Part shown: in pieces, positions 3,815 to 64,000 of the stretch | Numbering within the stretch: position 1 is the first letter of the stretch | Layout of the letters: the number at the start of each line of letters is the position of its first letter | IMG/VR virus record: IMGVR_UViG_3300032268_001411 | Span: 11,594 to 75,593 of that record | DNA length: 64,000 nucleotides | From: a virus | Strand: one strand, 5' to 3' | Notes under the pieces: generated by a model | What the model was told of the DNA's origin: nothing | Databases searched by the model: none | Seen by the model: only the letters and a program-made list of their open reading frames with translations | Program-made: the position numbers and the translations under genes

Positions 3815-3866
3815 ATCTGTAAGAAAATTGAAATTTCTTATATATATCAAAAAAATAAGGTTTTAT

Positions 3867-4391
3867 ATGGCAAAAGTTGCTCAAAAACAAGAAGAAGAAA
3901 GAAAAATAATTTTTGATACTCAATTAGTCGAAGAAGTGACTAATAAGATTAACGATGGTGTGATTGTTAAAAGATTTCAAAATCCATGGTTTCAAAATGA
4001 AATCGGGGTTAGAAGATCAGGTATAACATTTAGATTAAGCGAAGATGAAATTCAAGAGTATATAAAATGTAAATTAGATATTAAATATTTTGCTGAAAAA
4101 TATTGTAGAGTCAAAACCGAAGATGGATCTGTTAGTAATATAAAACTAAGAGACTACCAAAAAGGAATATTAGATTTATATACAAAAAACAGATTTTCAA
4201 TACTATGCGCAAGCCGGCAAGTGGGTAAATGCTTTAATTTCAACACTTTGTGTAAAATGGAAGATGGTAAATTAGAAAGAATTGGTAAAATATATTATGA
4301 TTTATTGAGAAAAGAAAGAAAATTAACGATTCTCGAAAAAATTAAAATATTTTTGTACAATTCCCTTTTCTCATTAGGCAGGAAGCCATAA
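3867..4391 (+). CDS. terL: Terminase large subunit N-terminal fragment fused to a short N-intein (Cys1 at 4230)
   Basis: EYIKCKLDIKYFAEKYC...LRDYQK...ASRQVGK is gp17-like; Walker A is interrupted by CFNFNTL (intein block A). Confidence 0.9.
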   Translation: MAKVAQKQEEERKIIFDTQLVEEVTNKINDGVIVKRFQNPWFQNEIGVRRSGITFRLSEDEIQEYIKCKLDIKYFAEKYCRVKTEDGSVSNIKLRDYQKGILDLYTKNRFSILCASRQVGKCFNFNTLCKMEDGKLERIGKIYYDLLRKERKLTILEKIKIFLYNSLFSLGRKP

Positions 4392-4419
4392 AATTTTAAT
4401 ATATAAAAATAAAATTTTT

Positions 4420-5436
4420 ATGGAAAAAATTCTAATTGAAGATAATGATGATTTGGTGACTTGTAGAATTTGTGGTGGTCGACATAAAAGATTGTACGGT
4501 AAACATTTTACTGTTAATCACAAAATCACTTCTAAACAGTATAAAGAAATGTTTCCTGGTGCTCCAATTATGTGTAAAAATGATATGAAAAAAACTACTT
4601 TGAATTCAGGTAAGCACATGAAAGAGGATAGATACAAACAAATGTTCCGTGAGAAGGTATTGGGTGAGAAAAATCCAAATCATAGAAGCAGAACAACAGA
4701 ACAGGAAAGAAAGTCGAGAAGTCCATTTTCAAAACAGTTTATTGGATATTTTGATATTGAGAATAAAGAGGATCACATTAGTAAATTTGTTAAAGAAAGT
4801 TTAAAAGATAGAATAACTTCAACACAAAAAGAATATTACATCAAGAAGGGTTTTAGTGAGGAAGATGCAACTAAGCTATTATCCGATAGACAAAAAACAT
4901 TCAGTCTCGAAAAGTGTATTGAAAAGTATGGTGAGGAACAAGGTCATAAAAGATGGTCAGAAAGACAAAGTAAATGGCAAAAAAATCTATTGGAAAATGG
5001 AAATTTAAAATGTGGATACTCGAGTATAAGTCAAGAATTATTTTATGAAATAATTACCTATTATAAAAATAAATCTGATTTAATGGAAGTTTACTTTGCT
5101 ACCAAGAATAAAGAATATTTTATCAATACATCTGATTCTTTTTTTTCTTATGATTTCGTTGACATAAATAGGAAGAAGATTATAGAATATAATGGTGATA
5201 ATTATCATGCAAATCCGAATAGATTTTCTGAGAATGATTATCCACACCCGTTTAATAAAAAACTTGGTTTTTCCTCCAAAGAAATTTGGAACAGAGATAA
5301 TCAAAAAAAATTGGTTGCTGAATCGAAGGGTTTTGAAATTTTGGTGATTTGGGATAGTGAATTTAAAAAAAATAAAAGTGAAATAATACACAAATGCTTA
5401 CATTTCTTGGAAATAGAGACTATTGAAAATATTTGA
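4420..5436 (+). CDS. Free-standing putative homing endonuclease (Zn finger plus Vsr/DUF559-like nuclease)
   Basis: CRICG..H...H; YDFVD..KKIIEYNGDNYH...VIWDSE; lies between the split-intein halves. Confidence 0.75.
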   Translation: MEKILIEDNDDLVTCRICGGRHKRLYGKHFTVNHKITSKQYKEMFPGAPIMCKNDMKKTTLNSGKHMKEDRYKQMFREKVLGEKNPNHRSRTTEQERKSRSPFSKQFIGYFDIENKEDHISKFVKESLKDRITSTQKEYYIKKGFSEEDATKLLSDRQKTFSLEKCIEKYGEEQGHKRWSERQSKWQKNLLENGNLKCGYSSISQELFYEIITYYKNKSDLMEVYFATKNKEYFINTSDSFFSYDFVDINRKKIIEYNGDNYHANPNRFSENDYPHPFNKKLGFSSKEIWNRDNQKKLVAESKGFEILVIWDSEFKKNKSEIIHKCLHFLEIETIENI

Positions 5437-5514
5437 AATTAAGCAATATTTAATGAAAATGAATACTTCCTTTATAAAAGAGATAAGTAATTTAAAAAAA
5501 ATAATCTACTCACA

Positions 5515-7758
5515 GTGAAAGAATTTATAAGACGTATATTAATAAAATTTATTTACTTTCTGATTGAAATCATAGAAAAAATTGAGTTTAGAGAGAGAGA
5601 TTTGGACGAAGAAGATGTTTCGAAAAAAATTCTAAATACAATATCCAATTTGAATTTTAAGGTCCTGTCTGATAGTGGATTTGTGGATTGTACTGATATT
5701 CATATTACGCAACCTTATAGAGTTTATTTTGTTAGTCTTGAGAATGGTTATTTTTTAGAGGCAGCGGATAATCATATTTTATTTGACAAAGATTTTGAAG
5801 AAATTTTTGTCAAAGATTTGAAAATAGGCGATTTTGTTCATACCGATTGTGGGTTGATAGCTGTTAAGACTGTGAAGAGGATGAATAGAAAACAATCCAT
5901 GTTTGACCTGAGTATCGATCATCCGGAACACAGATTTTTCACAAATGGTATATTGAGTCACAATACAATCAATGCTGCCATTACTATGTTACACTTCATT
6001 ACATTCAATAATGATAAGAATATTATGATTGTAGCGAATATCAGGGGTACTACAATTGAAATTATTGATAAAATAAAAAATATTTATGTTCAATTACCAT
6101 TTTTTCTAAAATCCGGTATTAAAAATTGGAATCAACAATCTATCATTTTTGAAAATGGATGTCGAATAAAATCTTCAGCAAGAAGTAAAACTCCAGCAAT
6201 CGGTTTTACCATTGACTTTCTTTACCTTGATGAATTTGCACATATTCCATCTAATATTATTGAGCCTTATTATACTGCTGCCTTTCCAACCGTATCTGCA
6301 ATTGAAAATTCAAAGATTATTATCACTTCAACACCAAATGGAATGAATTTATTCTATAAGTTATTGACTAATGCTGAGAGACCTGAGGGTGATCCTTTGA
6401 AGAATAACTATAAGGCAATGAGGGTTTATTGGTACCAAGTCCCGGGTAGATTTGTTACATATTTTAGATTAAATAATCATAGACTTTATGAAAACGGATT
6501 GACAAAAGAAGAAGTTTTTAATCAAGTTATTGAAGAATTTTCTGAAATTACCAAGGTTGAAATGAAATTCATACCAGATTTAACAAAGGATGTTATTTAC
6601 ATTTATAATAATGAAAATTGCTCGGATATAGATGTTAAAAAATTTATTGTCCGAAAAGAAGATAGAGAAATTTCTATACATTCTATAGCTGAAGTTACGA
6701 CTTGGAAAGAAGAAGCTATTAAAGATATTGGTGGTGAGGATGCTTTCAATCAAGAATATGGATTAAGATTTATAAACGCTACAAGATCTTTACTTAATGA
6801 GAATATTATAGAACATCTATTAAATAATAAAAAACCTTTTATTTATAGGGACATTGAGGAGTTAGATAAAAAGTTAAAATTCTCTTATGGTGATTTGAAA
6901 TGGATTGATGACGAGGATGTCTTTTTACCTGAACAAAGAAAATCTGTAAAGGGTACAATCTCTATCGATATTTCTGAAGGGTTAGGTCAAGATTATTCGA
7001 TAATTAATATTTTCAAAATTAGGGAAAAATCAGATGATGTTATTGAATCACAGAAATTTAAGTATACACATTTAGCAGACTTTTTCTGCTTAGAACAAAT
7101 TGGAATTTATAGATGTAATTACGCTTCTGTTAAACAATTAGCAGAGATTTTTTATCTTTTAGCTTTTGAATACTTTGATTATGAGAATTTCAAAGTTGTT
7201 TTAGAATTAAATAATTATGGTAATGAATTCTTAGCACATTTACCTCACGTCTTTGAAGGAAAAAATAATTATGGTTCTAGTATATTTTTTAGGTATAAAC
7301 ATCGAGCAGATTCACCTGAAGAAAAAGTTGGATTAAAAGTTGGTGAGAATAAAAATATGTTAGTAAAGGATTATCAAGAAGCAATGGAAAAGAAAAATTT
7401 CATTGTTACCAATGAAGATAATATTCGAGAAATTACGACTTTTGTTAAACATATCACTTCTGCTGGTAATATTAGATATGCTGCAGATATAGGGCACGAT
7501 GATACAGTTATGTCTTTAGTAAATGCTGCTTCAGTATTTTCAAAGTTTGATTTTAGAGAAATGGTAGACGATTACGCAAACTCTATTGTAAGTAAAGAGA
7601 AGTTAACCTACTGGAATCAAATTTTAAAACAAGTTGAATACACTGAGATCACTGATTATCAGAGTATATTGGATGTGAATAGAAAAAGAAGAATGGCAGA
7701 ACAACTTAGAAATATGAATACTAAGATTCTTGGAAACAATAATTATGGTAGGTGGTAG
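5515..7758 (+). CDS. terL: Long C-intein (5515-5964) fused to the terminase large subunit C-terminal part
   Basis: EAADNHIL (block B), MFDLSI..HRFFTNGILSHN/T; then YLDEFAH (Walker B), ITSTPNG, DISEGLGQDYS, HDDTVM. Confidence 0.92.
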   Translation: MKEFIRRILIKFIYFLIEIIEKIEFRERDLDEEDVSKKILNTISNLNFKVLSDSGFVDCTDIHITQPYRVYFVSLENGYFLEAADNHILFDKDFEEIFVKDLKIGDFVHTDCGLIAVKTVKRMNRKQSMFDLSIDHPEHRFFTNGILSHNTINAAITMLHFITFNNDKNIMIVANIRGTTIEIIDKIKNIYVQLPFFLKSGIKNWNQQSIIFENGCRIKSSARSKTPAIGFTIDFLYLDEFAHIPSNIIEPYYTAAFPTVSAIENSKIIITSTPNGMNLFYKLLTNAERPEGDPLKNNYKAMRVYWYQVPGRFVTYFRLNNHRLYENGLTKEEVFNQVIEEFSEITKVEMKFIPDLTKDVIYIYNNENCSDIDVKKFIVRKEDREISIHSIAEVTTWKEEAIKDIGGEDAFNQEYGLRFINATRSLLNENIIEHLLNNKKPFIYRDIEELDKKLKFSYGDLKWIDDEDVFLPEQRKSVKGTISIDISEGLGQDYSIINIFKIREKSDDVIESQKFKYTHLADFFCLEQIGIYRCNYASVKQLAEIFYLLAFEYFDYENFKVVLELNNYGNEFLAHLPHVFEGKNNYGSSIFFRYKHRADSPEEKVGLKVGENKNMLVKDYQEAMEKKNFIVTNEDNIREITTFVKHITSAGNIRYAADIGHDDTVMSLVNAASVFSKFDFREMVDDYANSIVSKEKLTYWNQILKQVEYTEITDYQSILDVNRKRRMAEQLRNMNTKILGNNNYGRW

Positions 7759-7872: not shown

Positions 7873-8154
7873 TTAAGCTAATTCCATAGTCACTGTCAAT
7901 CCAGCACTTTTAAGTAAATTATACATTTTTTTGATTGTTTCTTGATCACCTCTTTTCACATCACATTTTCCAGTATAATGCACTAGAATAGCACATTGAT
8001 TTGCTTGTTCTACTTCGTGTTTGCAATATTTAACAAGACATTCAATGACAAACTCAAAGGTATTAAAGTCATCGTTGTGAAGCATTAAAATGTAGGGTTT
8101 AGATAAAATTTCGTCTAATTTTTCTTCTGTTTTTGATCTTGTAATTGTACTCAT
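7873..8154 (-). CDS. clpS: ClpS-like Clp protease adaptor
   Basis: LHNDDFNTFEFVIECL...QCAILVHYTGKCDVKRG. Confidence 0.9.
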   Translation of the reverse strand: MSTITRSKTEEKLDEILSKPYILMLHNDDFNTFEFVIECLVKYCKHEVEQANQCAILVHYTGKCDVKRGDQETIKKMYNLLKSAGLTVTMELA

Positions 8155-9266: not shown

Positions 9267-9932
9267 ATGAAACACATTAGAAATTTCGAAGGTTATAAAA
9301 ACAAAAGAAGAAGAGACGATATTATTAAAGAATCTGTTCTACAAGTTAATGATATTTACAAAGTTAGAACTATGATTGATATTCCTCAATCACTTATTAA
9401 CTCTTATGTTAAAAAAGTAAAAGAAACATCTGGAAAAAATTTACGTCAATATTTTGGTGATGTGGATATCGCTGAAGAAATTGTAAAATTCATTGCTATG
9501 ACTCAGCTTGATTCAGAAAAGATACCCGCTAACGCACTATTAGGCGGACAATCTCAGGCACAATCACAATCTCAAGTACAAGTACAAACATCACAAACTC
9601 AGGGTCAAGCACAAACACAGACACAGGAAGAGGATGATTTCGAAGATGTACAATCTCAAGGACAAGGTCAAGGACAGGGTCAAGGACAAGGTCAAGGACA
9701 GGGTCAAGGACAAGGTCAAGGACAAGGTCAAGGACAGGGTCAAGGACAAGGTCAAGGACAAGGTCAAGGACAGGGTCAAGGACAGGGTCAAGGACAGGGT
9801 CAAGGACAGGGTCAAGGACAGGGTCAAGGACAGGGTCAAGGACAGGGTCAAGGACAAGGTCAAGGACAGGGTCAAGGACAAGGTCAAGGACAAGCACAAT
9901 CACAGGAACTTCCAGAGGAAGAAGAAGATTAG
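9267..9932 (+). CDS. Hypothetical late protein with (GQ)39 tract
   Basis: Leader MKHIRNFEGY; upstream TAATATATA; GQ repeat and acidic tail. Confidence 0.8.
   Translation: MKHIRNFEGYKNKRRRDDIIKESVLQVNDIYKVRTMIDIPQSLINSYVKKVKETSGKNLRQYFGDVDIAEEIVKFIAMTQLDSEKIPANALLGGQSQAQSQSQVQVQTSQTQGQAQTQTQEEDDFEDVQSQGQGQGQGQGQGQGQGQGQGQGQGQGQGQGQGQGQGQGQGQGQGQGQGQGQGQGQGQGQGQGQGQGQGQGQGQGQGQGQAQSQELPEEEED
9660..9893 (+). repeat. Tandem 12-bp repeat GGACA(A/G)GGTCAA encoding 39 Gly-Gln dipeptides
   Basis: Directly visible. Confidence 0.95.
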
Positions 9933-62018: not shown

Positions 62019-62852
62019 ATGTCATTAAGAAGCGATATCAATAAATACACACCCAGAAAAGAGCAAACTGACGCTCTCGAATTCGTTAAAAAAACCTATA
62101 GTGAAAATGCTAAAATAAAGTTTTTTCTCTTAGATTTACCTGTTGGTGTTGGTAAATCACACTTAGCTATGATGCTAGCAGATTGGTATTCAAGAGCCAA
62201 TAATGGGACTAAAATCGATATTATTACTGCTGGAAAAATCCTACAAGATCAATATGACATCAGTTATGAATCTATCAATAACCTAAAGGGTAAAGAGAAC
62301 TATGATTGTAATCAATATGCCTGTTCTTGTGCTAACGGTAAAGAATTCAATAGATTAAATAAAACTAGTTGTGATTCTTGTCCTTATGATGGTGCTAGAA
62401 ATGGATACATTTCCGGTAAAGTTAGCTTAACAAATTTTCATCTTTACTTAACTTATGCTCTTTATAATCAAAATATAGTAGAGGGAAGAGAGTCTACTAT
62501 GTTGATAGTTGACGAGTGTTTACATCCTGATACGGAAATCACCTTACATGATTTTTCTAAGAAAAGAATATCTGATGTAAACATTGGTGATTTGGTTTGG
62601 ACAATAAATGAGAGTAATGGAGAATTAGAAATTAAAGAAGTTGAATTTGTCTATAAAAATTTAAACAAAGGTCAACAAATGTATGAACTTGAAATGGACA
62701 ATGGTGATATAATTCAAATAACTGGAAATCACAAAGTAAAATTAAAAAGCGGAATATGGAAAAAGGTTGAAGACTTATCTATAGAGGATGAAATTATAGA
62801 TATATACTATAAAACCGAATGCCATGAAATTGACAACAATGGAAAAAGATAG
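62019..62852 (+). CDS. DinG/Rad3-like helicase N-terminal fragment fused to an N-intein (Cys1 at 62517)
   Basis: PVGVGKS, LQDQY, KGKENYDC, CPY, LIVDE then CLHPDTEI...ITGNHKV. Confidence 0.9.
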   Translation: MSLRSDINKYTPRKEQTDALEFVKKTYSENAKIKFFLLDLPVGVGKSHLAMMLADWYSRANNGTKIDIITAGKILQDQYDISYESINNLKGKENYDCNQYACSCANGKEFNRLNKTSCDSCPYDGARNGYISGKVSLTNFHLYLTYALYNQNIVEGRESTMLIVDECLHPDTEITLHDFSKKRISDVNIGDLVWTINESNGELEIKEVEFVYKNLNKGQQMYELEMDNGDIIQITGNHKVKLKSGIWKKVEDLSIEDEIIDIYYKTECHEIDNNGKR

Positions 62853-63681
62853 TATCTATGATTTGATGTATATTAATAGGAAAAAATATTTGTTTTATAA
62901 TAATAAAAAATTAATTGAGAATTTTTTCCAATTGAATAAAATAGAATTGGATATCGAATTTGAAAGTTTTTCTGAAATTTTTGAATATTTAACAGAACAT
63001 TGGGATAAAAAATGTAAAAATGAAGAGTGTGAAAATATCAGAAAATTAGTAGCATTATTACCAAAGAGAAGTGATTATCATAATGTAAAGAGAATACATG
63101 GGATATTCAAGTATTGTGGAAAATCTTGTAATTATCAATCGATATCAAAGAGGCAGATGGGTGATAAAAATACATCTCATAGAATGAGTAAAGAAACATT
63201 GGAGAATATGAAGTTGAAAAATTCGATTCTTATGAAAGAAAAAATTAAAAATGGTGAATTTATACCAAATGTGACAAATTCTTGGGCTAAATCTAGATGT
63301 GATTTGAAATTTTATAGAGATGGTATATTAGTTGAAATTAAACTCAGATCAACTTGGGATGCTTATTTCCAACTCTATAACAAAAAATTTCTATATGAGA
63401 AAGTAGTTATACCATATAAATACAAAGATGTTGAAAAAAACTATATAGTTGATTTTGTTGACTTGGAGAATAAAATTTTATACGAGATAAAGCCAAATTC
63501 AACCTATAATGACCCAAAAAACATATCCAAATTTGAAAGTGCAAAAAAATGGTGTGTTAATAATGGATATGAATATAAAATAATAACAGACGAATGGTTC
63601 AAAGAAAATTATGATGAATCGTTAGTTTTTGGACAACCATCTGAAGAAAAAATATTAAGAAATTTAAAACAATTCAAATGA
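62824..63681 (+). CDS. Free-standing PD-(D/E)XK endonuclease (TnsA-N-like)
   Basis: RSTWD, YIVDFVD, YEIKP, K..A..WC; lies between the intein halves. Confidence 0.75.
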   Translation: MKLTTMEKDSIYDLMYINRKKYLFYNNKKLIENFFQLNKIELDIEFESFSEIFEYLTEHWDKKCKNEECENIRKLVALLPKRSDYHNVKRIHGIFKYCGKSCNYQSISKRQMGDKNTSHRMSKETLENMKLKNSILMKEKIKNGEFIPNVTNSWAKSRCDLKFYRDGILVEIKLRSTWDAYFQLYNKKFLYEKVVIPYKYKDVEKNYIVDFVDLENKILYEIKPNSTYNDPKNISKFESAKKWCVNNGYEYKIITDEWFKENYDESLVFGQPSEEKILRNLKQFK

Positions 63682-64000
63682 AGATTAAAAGTATAAAAAA
63701 AATAGACTATAAAGATGATGTTTACAATTTGAGAATAAAAGACAACCACAACTATTTTGCTAATAATCATTGTGTAAGTAATTGTCATGAACTAGATTCT
63801 GTAATGAGTGATTTTATTTCAATAAAAATTACCGAGAATGTAGTAAAGAAATTGAAATTCACTAACGAGGCAAAAGTCTTGAAAGCCTTAAAGTCAGTAT
63901 CTTCTATTTCTGAGTATGTCAAGTTTTTAGAGTTTATGAAAGTAGAATTAGCTGTGACTGTTGCATCTTTAGATAGTTCGATGCAAGGTGATAGAAGTGC
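63678..64000 (+). CDS. 35-aa C-intein fused to the helicase C-terminal part, runs off the right edge
   Basis: Not in the ORF track; MKIKSIKKIDYKDDVYNLRIKDNHNYFANNHCVSN/CHELDSVMSDF. Confidence 0.9.
   Translation, partial: MKIKSIKKIDYKDDVYNLRIKDNHNYFANNHCVSNCHELDSVMSDFISIKITENVVKKLKFTNEAKVLKALKSVSSISEYVKFLEFMKVELAVTVASLDSSMQGDRS

Follow-up and report, generated by a model that had tools for sequence, protein, structure and literature searches.

How do two separate gene products, one ending and the other beginning with part of an intein, come together to yield one large terminase subunit (TerL), and what do the extra residues at their free ends do? A locus in a 64,000-nt stretch of the IMG/VR virus record IMGVR_UViG_3300032268_001411 (the window) raises this question. 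Between positions 3867 and 7758 the TerL gene is broken inside its Walker A motif by a split intein, with an endonuclease gene separating the halves. Inteins that are atypically split and have a short N fragment are valued for protein labeling but tend to bind weakly. Modeling of a relative indicates that the extensions on the two intein fragments of the window are the two arms of a helical hairpin, which unsplit members of the same intein clade carry intact. In the split form the two extensions most likely pair with each other, clasping the halves.

The fractured terminase gene and its intein

The locus consists of two TerL exteins, the N- and C-terminal intein fragments (IntN and IntC) and the intervening gene.

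3867..4229, plus strand: TerL N-extein, 121 aa, with the Walker A end ...SRQVGK and a match to phrog_5989
4230..4391, plus strand: IntN, 53 aa and stop, with Cys1 and block A
4420..5436, plus strand: predicted free-standing homing-type endonuclease gene, 338 aa
5515..5616, plus strand: IntC head, mapped by homology, with 9 extra residues, C-arm helix and acidic linker
5617..5964, plus strand: IntC HINT core, with blocks B (ADNH), F and G (...SHN)
5965..7758, plus strand: TerL C-extein, 596 aa and stop, with Thr+1 as its first residue (5965-5967), which completes GKT

The longest open reading frame (ORF) of the N-half starts at a TTG at 3828, but more than 200 homologues start at the ATG at 3867 (MAK...), giving a product of 174 aa that ends at a TAA stop codon (4389-4391). 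The C-half starts at a GTG at 5515, with which the Met (ATG) starts of its homologues align. The two halves cover adjoining stretches of one profile for the terminase large subunit, phrog_5989 (positions 93-170 and 159-291). The N-extein matches it with E 1.1e-18 over positions 93-170 and has more than 239 homologues. The C-extein matches Pfam Terminase_6N (E 4.8e-14) and shares 66-67% identity with the TerL of LR756502 and LR745206, two uncultured phages (634-642 kb). The nearest named records are uncultured phages of 634-735 kb. These are Mahaphage-type genomes of Al-Shayeb et al. 2020, a paper that makes no mention of inteins (PMC7162821).

The two TerL ORFs are adjacent, lie on the same strand and are collinear with uninterrupted TerL homologues. 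The upstream ORF closes with the N part of an intein and the downstream ORF opens with the C part, and a free-standing endonuclease gene lies between them, as in fractured genes. At the junction (marked here by a slash), 40 related intein-less loci with contiguous N- and C-extein read ...GK/TINAAI... straight through. Contigs from independent lake and freshwater sequencing runs bridge both junctions, N-half to endonuclease and endonuclease to C-half, at 94-100% identity, so the split layout is not an assembly artefact. A joint lacking the endonuclease in one run (4415 to 5535, 1119 nt skipped), whose shorter side has only 21 letters, was left unused.

IntN carries block A alone, and the window has the residues of a class 1 intein (C1, ADNH, MFD...H, SHN and T+1). 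Pfam Intein_splicing matches IntC residues 113-150. Among PDB sequences the best match to IntC is CatC (6DSL_B, E 1.7e-4), followed by VidaL (E 1.9e-3) and then gp41-1. The CatC match spans IntC residues 42-149 only; the IntC head is absent from CatC. The break falls between block A and block B, as in atypically split TerL inteins of the AceL/GOS/Cat type, and the fragments of 53 and 150 aa exceed the minimal sizes of that type (IntN 25-37 aa, IntC about 104-122 aa). The HINT fold itself is seen in the AlphaFold2 (AF2) model of one contiguous relative, from locus L131. By its sequence the window element is a class-1 intein of the Cat/AceL/GOS-TerL lineage in a fractured TerL gene. An earlier reading from the letters and ORFs of the window (the sequence-only reading) had proposed a fractured TerL with an atypically split intein of the AceL-TerL type, a broken Walker A restored to GKT, and a 53-aa IntN with block A opposite a 150-aa IntC with blocks B, F and G. 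The CatC match, the intein-less relatives, and the ORFs and block positions bear out these three claims.

All 105 aligned inteins share Cys1, the His of block B, the Asp of block F and the C-terminal His-Asn; the set was chosen by a terminal [S/N]HN pattern, which partly enforces the invariance of the terminal His-Asn. In an unbiased set (n=23), H149, N150 and T151 are invariant. These residues suggest that the window intein would be active in trans-splicing. Instead, the two halves could function unspliced, kept together non-covalently by the fragments of the intein and the helices. There is a precedent in the NrdA of an Aeromonas phage, which is split by a mobile endonuclease and works as a non-covalent complex (PMC3045599), and a strong clasp could in principle keep the TerL halves together. 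Yet the splicing residues are strictly conserved in every relative, and alleles lacking the intein are collinear in other respects. It is the P-loop that is broken, and an unspliced insert of 200 residues would very likely disrupt it. We consider a purely non-covalent TerL highly improbable.

The helical hairpin at the break

What sets this intein apart from the minimal atypically split type lies at the break: IntN continues for 27 residues past block A, and the first ~40 residues of IntC form its head. Both extensions are kept in more than 100 relatives, split and unsplit, and so, contrary to what had first been supposed, are not peculiar to this phage. They are conserved among relatives that are only 45-70% identical overall. 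In the IntN tail R151, L153, E157, K160 and Y164 (numbering of the 174-aa N-half) are near-invariant, forming the motif R-x-L-T-x-L-E-K-x-K...Y. In the IntC head I17, E21, D34, K37, K38 and I39 are invariant in all C-halves sampled, within the consensus ...LIExIEKxEYRxxxLDExDISKKIL...

Such conservation could reside in the DNA, with no role for the peptides, if the endonuclease recognized or homed to the arm sequences or if these held signals of its cassette. The insertion point of the cassette never varies, and homing sites are typically conserved sequence. The substitution pattern speaks against this explanation. The ratio of non-synonymous to synonymous substitution (dN/dS), pooled over 14 pairs, is 0.21 in the arms, compared with 0.13 in the HINT core and 0.20 in the block A piece. 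In the arms, synonymous sites are close to saturation (pS 0.54) but few non-synonymous changes have accumulated (pN 0.18). It is therefore the peptides, and not the DNA, that are under selection. In addition, AF2 confidently places the arms as helices. Conservation of the arms as a DNA site is very unlikely.

At least 20 natural unsplit inteins hold both extensions in one chain. Locus scans yielded unsplit inteins of 192-201 aa in which a short turn joins the arms (L131, L205/L286, L212, L247-L250 and L264). In an exhaustive search of 1.84 billion protein representatives, at least 18 clusters match unbroken across the hairpin. The same search returned many C-halves with the head, and a separate armless, Cat-like class that starts just after it. 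A word-index search for longer fused proteins with IntN and its tail found none; the contiguous forms came from the other searches.

The AF2 model of the contiguous L131 intein has a mean predicted local distance difference test (pLDDT) score of 93.3 and a predicted template modeling (pTM) score of 0.88. It was calculated from an 87-row alignment checked by eye. Rows with the N fragment only were omitted, as MAFFT misplaced them onto the C part, and the N part of the alignment rests on ~22 contiguous sequences. The block A strands are followed by a helix (residues 29-40), a second helix (45-57, the N arm), a four-residue turn and a third helix (62-76, the C arm). A ten-residue acidic coil then leads into the beta-rich HINT core. 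The pLDDT of the arms is 91-96. The model superposes on VidaL (6vgv) with Z 19.1 and a root-mean-square deviation of 1.8 over 140 aligned residues; for NpuDnaB, Z is 17.5. The top structural matches align only 121-157 of the 210 residues of the model (194 of them intein), and the helical hairpin is thus an insert in an ordinary intein fold. Mapped from the L131 model by alignment, these elements fall in the window as follows.

4281-4316, plus strand: helix A
4329-4367, plus strand: N-arm helix
to 4388, plus strand: 7-aa tail of IntN, extra residues at the free end
from 5515, plus strand: 9 extra residues of IntC at the free end
5542-5586, plus strand: C-arm helix
5587-5616, plus strand: acidic linker (FRERDLDEED)

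In the unsplit relatives the arms form one confidently modeled hairpin and the break lies at its tip, so an association of the two helices is well founded. Covariation between the arms, calculated as mutual information with average product correction, places Y49-L58 third among all pairs; strong pairs are few and lie near the turn.

Alternatively, the hairpin might mainly serve a purpose different from clasping the halves, to whose association it would then contribute only incidentally. As a subdomain it might bind DNA or protein, regulate splicing or contact the endonuclease. In PI-SceI, for comparison, a DNA-recognition region is inserted in the splicing domain. The hairpin is conserved in unsplit inteins, where a clasp would be superfluous, and covariation also connects the N arm to helix A, through 6 of the top 100 pairs (0.86 expected). 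No DNA-binding motif was detected in the arms, though, and the arms of a covalent hairpin pack together anyway, which makes pairing in trans the simplest expectation. The existence of armless atypically split relatives, a further point against such a role, shows the hairpin insert to be dispensable for splicing itself. On balance, we regard a different main role as unlikely and pairing of the arms as the better account.

The endonuclease cassette at the hairpin tip

The position of the break is documented by a pair of sister loci within a strongly supported clade, one contiguous (L264) and one split with an endonuclease gene (L215). A 1143-nt insertion in L215 replaces 5 nt exactly at the turn, between flanks that are 88% and 78% identical in DNA. 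At the tip, the protein reads ...YRKS-TLKNIIL... in L264 and ...YRKL(stop) / MRNILKNIIL... in L215.

A census of 109 unique loci found 69 that are split and have a full homologous endonuclease at the same position. A further 16 have short gaps (18-284 nt), overlaps (up to 47 nt) or endonuclease remnants, 17 hold other inserts and 7 are contiguous. Remnants of the endonuclease are found in L121, L139, L246 and L274, and in L245 the halves are separated by an 18-nt gap with two stop codons only. Both halves are in the same frame in the split loci L104, L245 and L253. A tree of the HINT core, built with the arms excluded, separates the hairpin inteins from the armless ones by one branch (SH-aLRT 94); the root inside the hairpin clade is not fixed. 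Between contiguous and split status there are at least 4 changes, a minimum imposed by strongly supported branches, and at most 11. The short-gap forms, 14 on the tree, require 14 changes and are thus scattered singly. On this sequence tree the split state alternates with the contiguous one and with that of a decayed nuclease. The endonuclease cassette comes and goes at the site, which would let alleles of all three kinds coexist in the phage group.

Relatives of the locus also vary in other ways. In L007 the TerL C-half lies on the opposite strand (12894-10705), ~3.2-5.4 kb from the N-half; the TerL halves need not adjoin or share orientation. In some relatives (L014:7523-9337 and L027:1798-3579) the Vsr-like endonuclease is replaced by a different insert of 1.8 kb. 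Its reading on the TerL strand shows ...LSTPH... again and again, a sign that a gene with repeats may lie on the opposite strand. The C-halves P0145, P0155 and P0207-P0215 are ~360 aa longer, at ~1106 aa, with extra Hint/LAGLIDADG Pfam domains, and probably contain another intein, a contiguous one, at a later point in TerL.

We read the product of 4420-5436 as a putative Vsr-like homing-type endonuclease with a Ros-type zinc finger. The predicted domain order is an N-terminal Ros/MucR-type zinc finger, a helical middle part and a C-terminal Vsr-like (DUF559-type) nuclease. The Pfam scores of the window copy are below threshold (ROS_MUCR E 0.0015, DUF559 E 0.033), but over 35 homologues at the same locus position ROS_MUCR is found in 26, DUF559 in 20 (best E 3.5e-7) and MTES_1575 in 17. 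The family profile matches the DUF559 structure 3hrl (E 0.0035), I-Bth0305I (3r3p, E 0.13) and Vsr (E 0.99). Across the family D245, E256, G259 and H263 are invariant, in a motif D...E-x-x-G-x-x-x-H. An AF2 model of the endonuclease has a pLDDT of 82.9, with 89-97 over most of the C-terminal domain. Foldseek matches this model to 3r3p (probability 0.96, TMt 0.62, E 0.14), to Vsr (1cw0; probability 0.97, TMt 0.60) and to the Ros zinc finger 2jsp, with no match at E<=0.001.

In most relatives the endonuclease gene overlaps the start of the C-half by 8 or 25 nt; in the window a spacer of 78 nt lies between them. Upstream of the gene is a short motif.

4397..4405, plus strand: TAATATATA, located 15 nt before the ATG of the endonuclease gene; candidate promoter or regulatory element of the phage

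The 9-mer TAATATATA has 23 copies in the window where 4.0 are expected, a count that 0/100 shuffles reached, and it also lies 5' of other ORFs such as those at 2331 and 9267. Copies occur, for example, at 2316, 4397, 9232, 10003 and 13068, and several precede an ORF start by 15-35 nt. Upstream of the TerL N-half lies TTATATATAT, which resembles the motif without matching it exactly; no such motif precedes the C-half. Scans for sigma-70 promoters and terminators gave background levels. We regard TAATATATA as a candidate phage promoter motif. The claim that the endonuclease gene between the halves has its own promoter is upheld as far as the gene and the recurrent motif go; the motif may act as a promoter.

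Endonuclease genes of the Vsr-like family also occur in group I introns, for example I-Bth0305I (PMC3239194), and the interruption might be removed from the RNA as a group I or II intron, leaving the extra codons untranslated. Against this, no Rfam intron family, group I included, matches the locus even at E<=10. Conserved intein blocks and arms, on which purifying selection acts, are encoded on either side, and in the short-gap relatives the halves overlap or lie only 18-104 nt apart. An intron is an extremely improbable explanation of this locus, which we read as a split intein with an endonuclease cassette.

Proposed re-pairing of the arms and comparison with known systems

We consider it probable that the window holds a hairpin-bearing TerL intein with an endonuclease cassette at the hairpin tip, whose arms re-pair in trans so that trans-splicing yields an intact TerL. 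According to this reading, a class-1 intein interrupts the TerL gene of a freshwater huge phage inside Walker A (GK/T). In the inteins of its clade, ~50 residues inserted between blocks A and B form a pair of antiparallel helices. The endonuclease gene, placed exactly at the hairpin tip, brings its own upstream motif, together with a stop codon upstream and a start codon downstream. Two products result: the N-extein with a 53-aa IntN (block A strands, helix A and N arm), and a 150-aa IntC (C arm, acidic linker and blocks B, F and G) with the C-extein. After translation, the N arm and the C arm would re-pair as in the unsplit relatives. Their pairing would dock the short block A piece on IntC and complete the HINT fold, upon which Cys1, the terminal Asn and Thr+1 would carry out trans-splicing to an intact TerL with GKT.

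Several observations weigh against this reading. The hairpin was modeled on a relative that is 48-52% identical to the window IntC and not on the window's own fragments. The sequence-only reading had described amphipathic extensions on both free ends. The extensions are real, and as an alpha-helix the C-side one is significantly amphipathic by hydrophobic moment (p=0.035), but the N-side one is not (p=0.33). Arm-by-arm pairs above the 95th percentile of covariation number 20/323 compared with ~16 expected, so that there is no overall enrichment, and the junction columns of the covariation alignment are alignment-sensitive. Finally, although TerL occurs once in the 75.6-kb IMG/VR record, that record is only about 16% complete, and a second intact TerL may lie elsewhere in the genome. 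Dependence of packaging on trans-splicing is plausible. The same earlier reading had viewed the extensions as an added heterodimerization clasp. Pairing is most likely, as set out above, but the clasp is not an addition, since its arms form a hairpin in contiguous inteins as well.

A more far-reaching combination of these elements can be proposed tentatively, and we place it somewhat below even chances. The hairpin would act as a zipper of two helices, native to this intein clade, through which an intein whose N fragment is very short could function as two pieces. The endonuclease would home into the hairpin tip of contiguous inteins and thereby parasitize the intein and not TerL. It would convert unsplit inteins to split ones, which would revert once the endonuclease decays, so that conversion between the two states would be repeated.

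If the arms do pair as proposed, a natural helical clasp with dozens of variants and matched unsplit forms would show nature's route to fragment association. It would also offer a portable, orthogonal docking or affinity module for split-intein engineering. Many huge freshwater phages encode their essential packaging ATPase as two genes, and every stage in the life of a nested selfish element (intein, endonuclease invasion, decay and re-fusion) is laid out at one site. TerL-based trees and gene calls in huge phages will mishandle such loci unless the split is recognized.

The window has further features outside the TerL locus. A second fractured gene lies at 62019-64000, where a helicase-like ORF ends with ...LIVDE/C and an IntN of ~110 aa that includes block B. 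It is followed by an overlapping ORF of 285 aa resembling PD-(D/E)xK nucleases (62824-63681) and by an ORF that opens with an IntC of ~35 aa ending ...VSN/CHELD; here the intein is broken at the canonical site. The nuclease of this second gene and the TerL endonuclease are unrelated, with no significant tblastn match. Directly downstream of TerL, on the opposite strand, is a gene for a ClpS-like Clp protease adaptor (Pfam ClpS, E 8e-18). The ORF at 9267-9932 encodes a protein with a long perfect Gly-Gln dipeptide repeat.

7873-8154, minus strand: ClpS-like Clp protease adaptor
9267-9932, plus strand: protein with ~40 GQ units and Q/S/T-rich and acidic flanks

Fractured TerL genes, the atypical split and the arrangement with a Vsr-like endonuclease are already known. 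Like the fractured genes of Dassa et al. 2009, which include a gp17-like terminase locus from Lake Gatun, the window has adjacent ORFs with split-intein parts and a free-standing endonuclease between them (PMC2677866). One terminase locus with a break at an unusual position was already pointed out in that study. The endonucleases of the 2009 loci are Vsr-like or GIY-YIG, and that of the window is putatively Vsr-like. Unlike those genes, the window has an IntN of 53 aa and an IntC of 150 aa, the excess being a conserved helix pair at the break. The 2009 paper describes no extension, helix or coiled coil, words that occur in it 0 times or once (PMC2677866). Natural contiguous alleles and alleles with a decayed endonuclease are documented here for the same intein.

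The window intein resembles AceL-TerL, GOS-TerL, Cat (6DSL) and VidaL (6VGV), CatC being its best sequence match in the PDB and VidaL the best structural match of the L131 model. In atypically split TerL inteins IntN has 25-37 aa and IntC about 104 aa (PMC11766414). In contrast to the AceL/GOS/Cat type, the window has ~41 extra residues at the N-terminus of IntC and ~27 at the C-terminus of IntN, which together would form the helical hairpin. The +1 residue is Thr in the window and is reported to be Cys in GOS-TerL (PMC11766414). Inteins with Cys1 and Thr+1 are already common (PMC11766414), and use of this one as a new splicing tool is speculation.

The TerL mini-intein of the Klebsiella phages Magnus and May (Taipeivirus, MN045230) occupies the same site (...RQSGK/C...SHN/T) and is 37% identical over IntC and extein. 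It differs from the window intein in being unsplit, with 159 aa, a loop of 24 residues in place of the 27+46 residues of the window, and no endonuclease gene. The endonuclease occupies the position of such enzymes in fractured genes, and its C-terminal domain probably has the Vsr-like fold of I-Bth0305I and the Vsr-like EDxHD family (PMC3239194), to which the window copy is weakly similar. In comparison with that family, its N-terminal DNA-binding part would be a Ros/MucR-type zinc finger.

In the literature searched, which did not extend to the primary GOS-TerL and Cat papers, we found no helical hairpin at a split site and no natural series of contiguous and split forms, nor any account of split inteins in the terminases of huge phages, or of helices or coiled coils as elements of natural split inteins. 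In engineered split inteins, coiled coils or other affinity modules bring low-affinity fragments together. The module seen here would differ from these in being natural, in lying inside the intein at the break, and in occurring also as a covalent hairpin in unsplit relatives.

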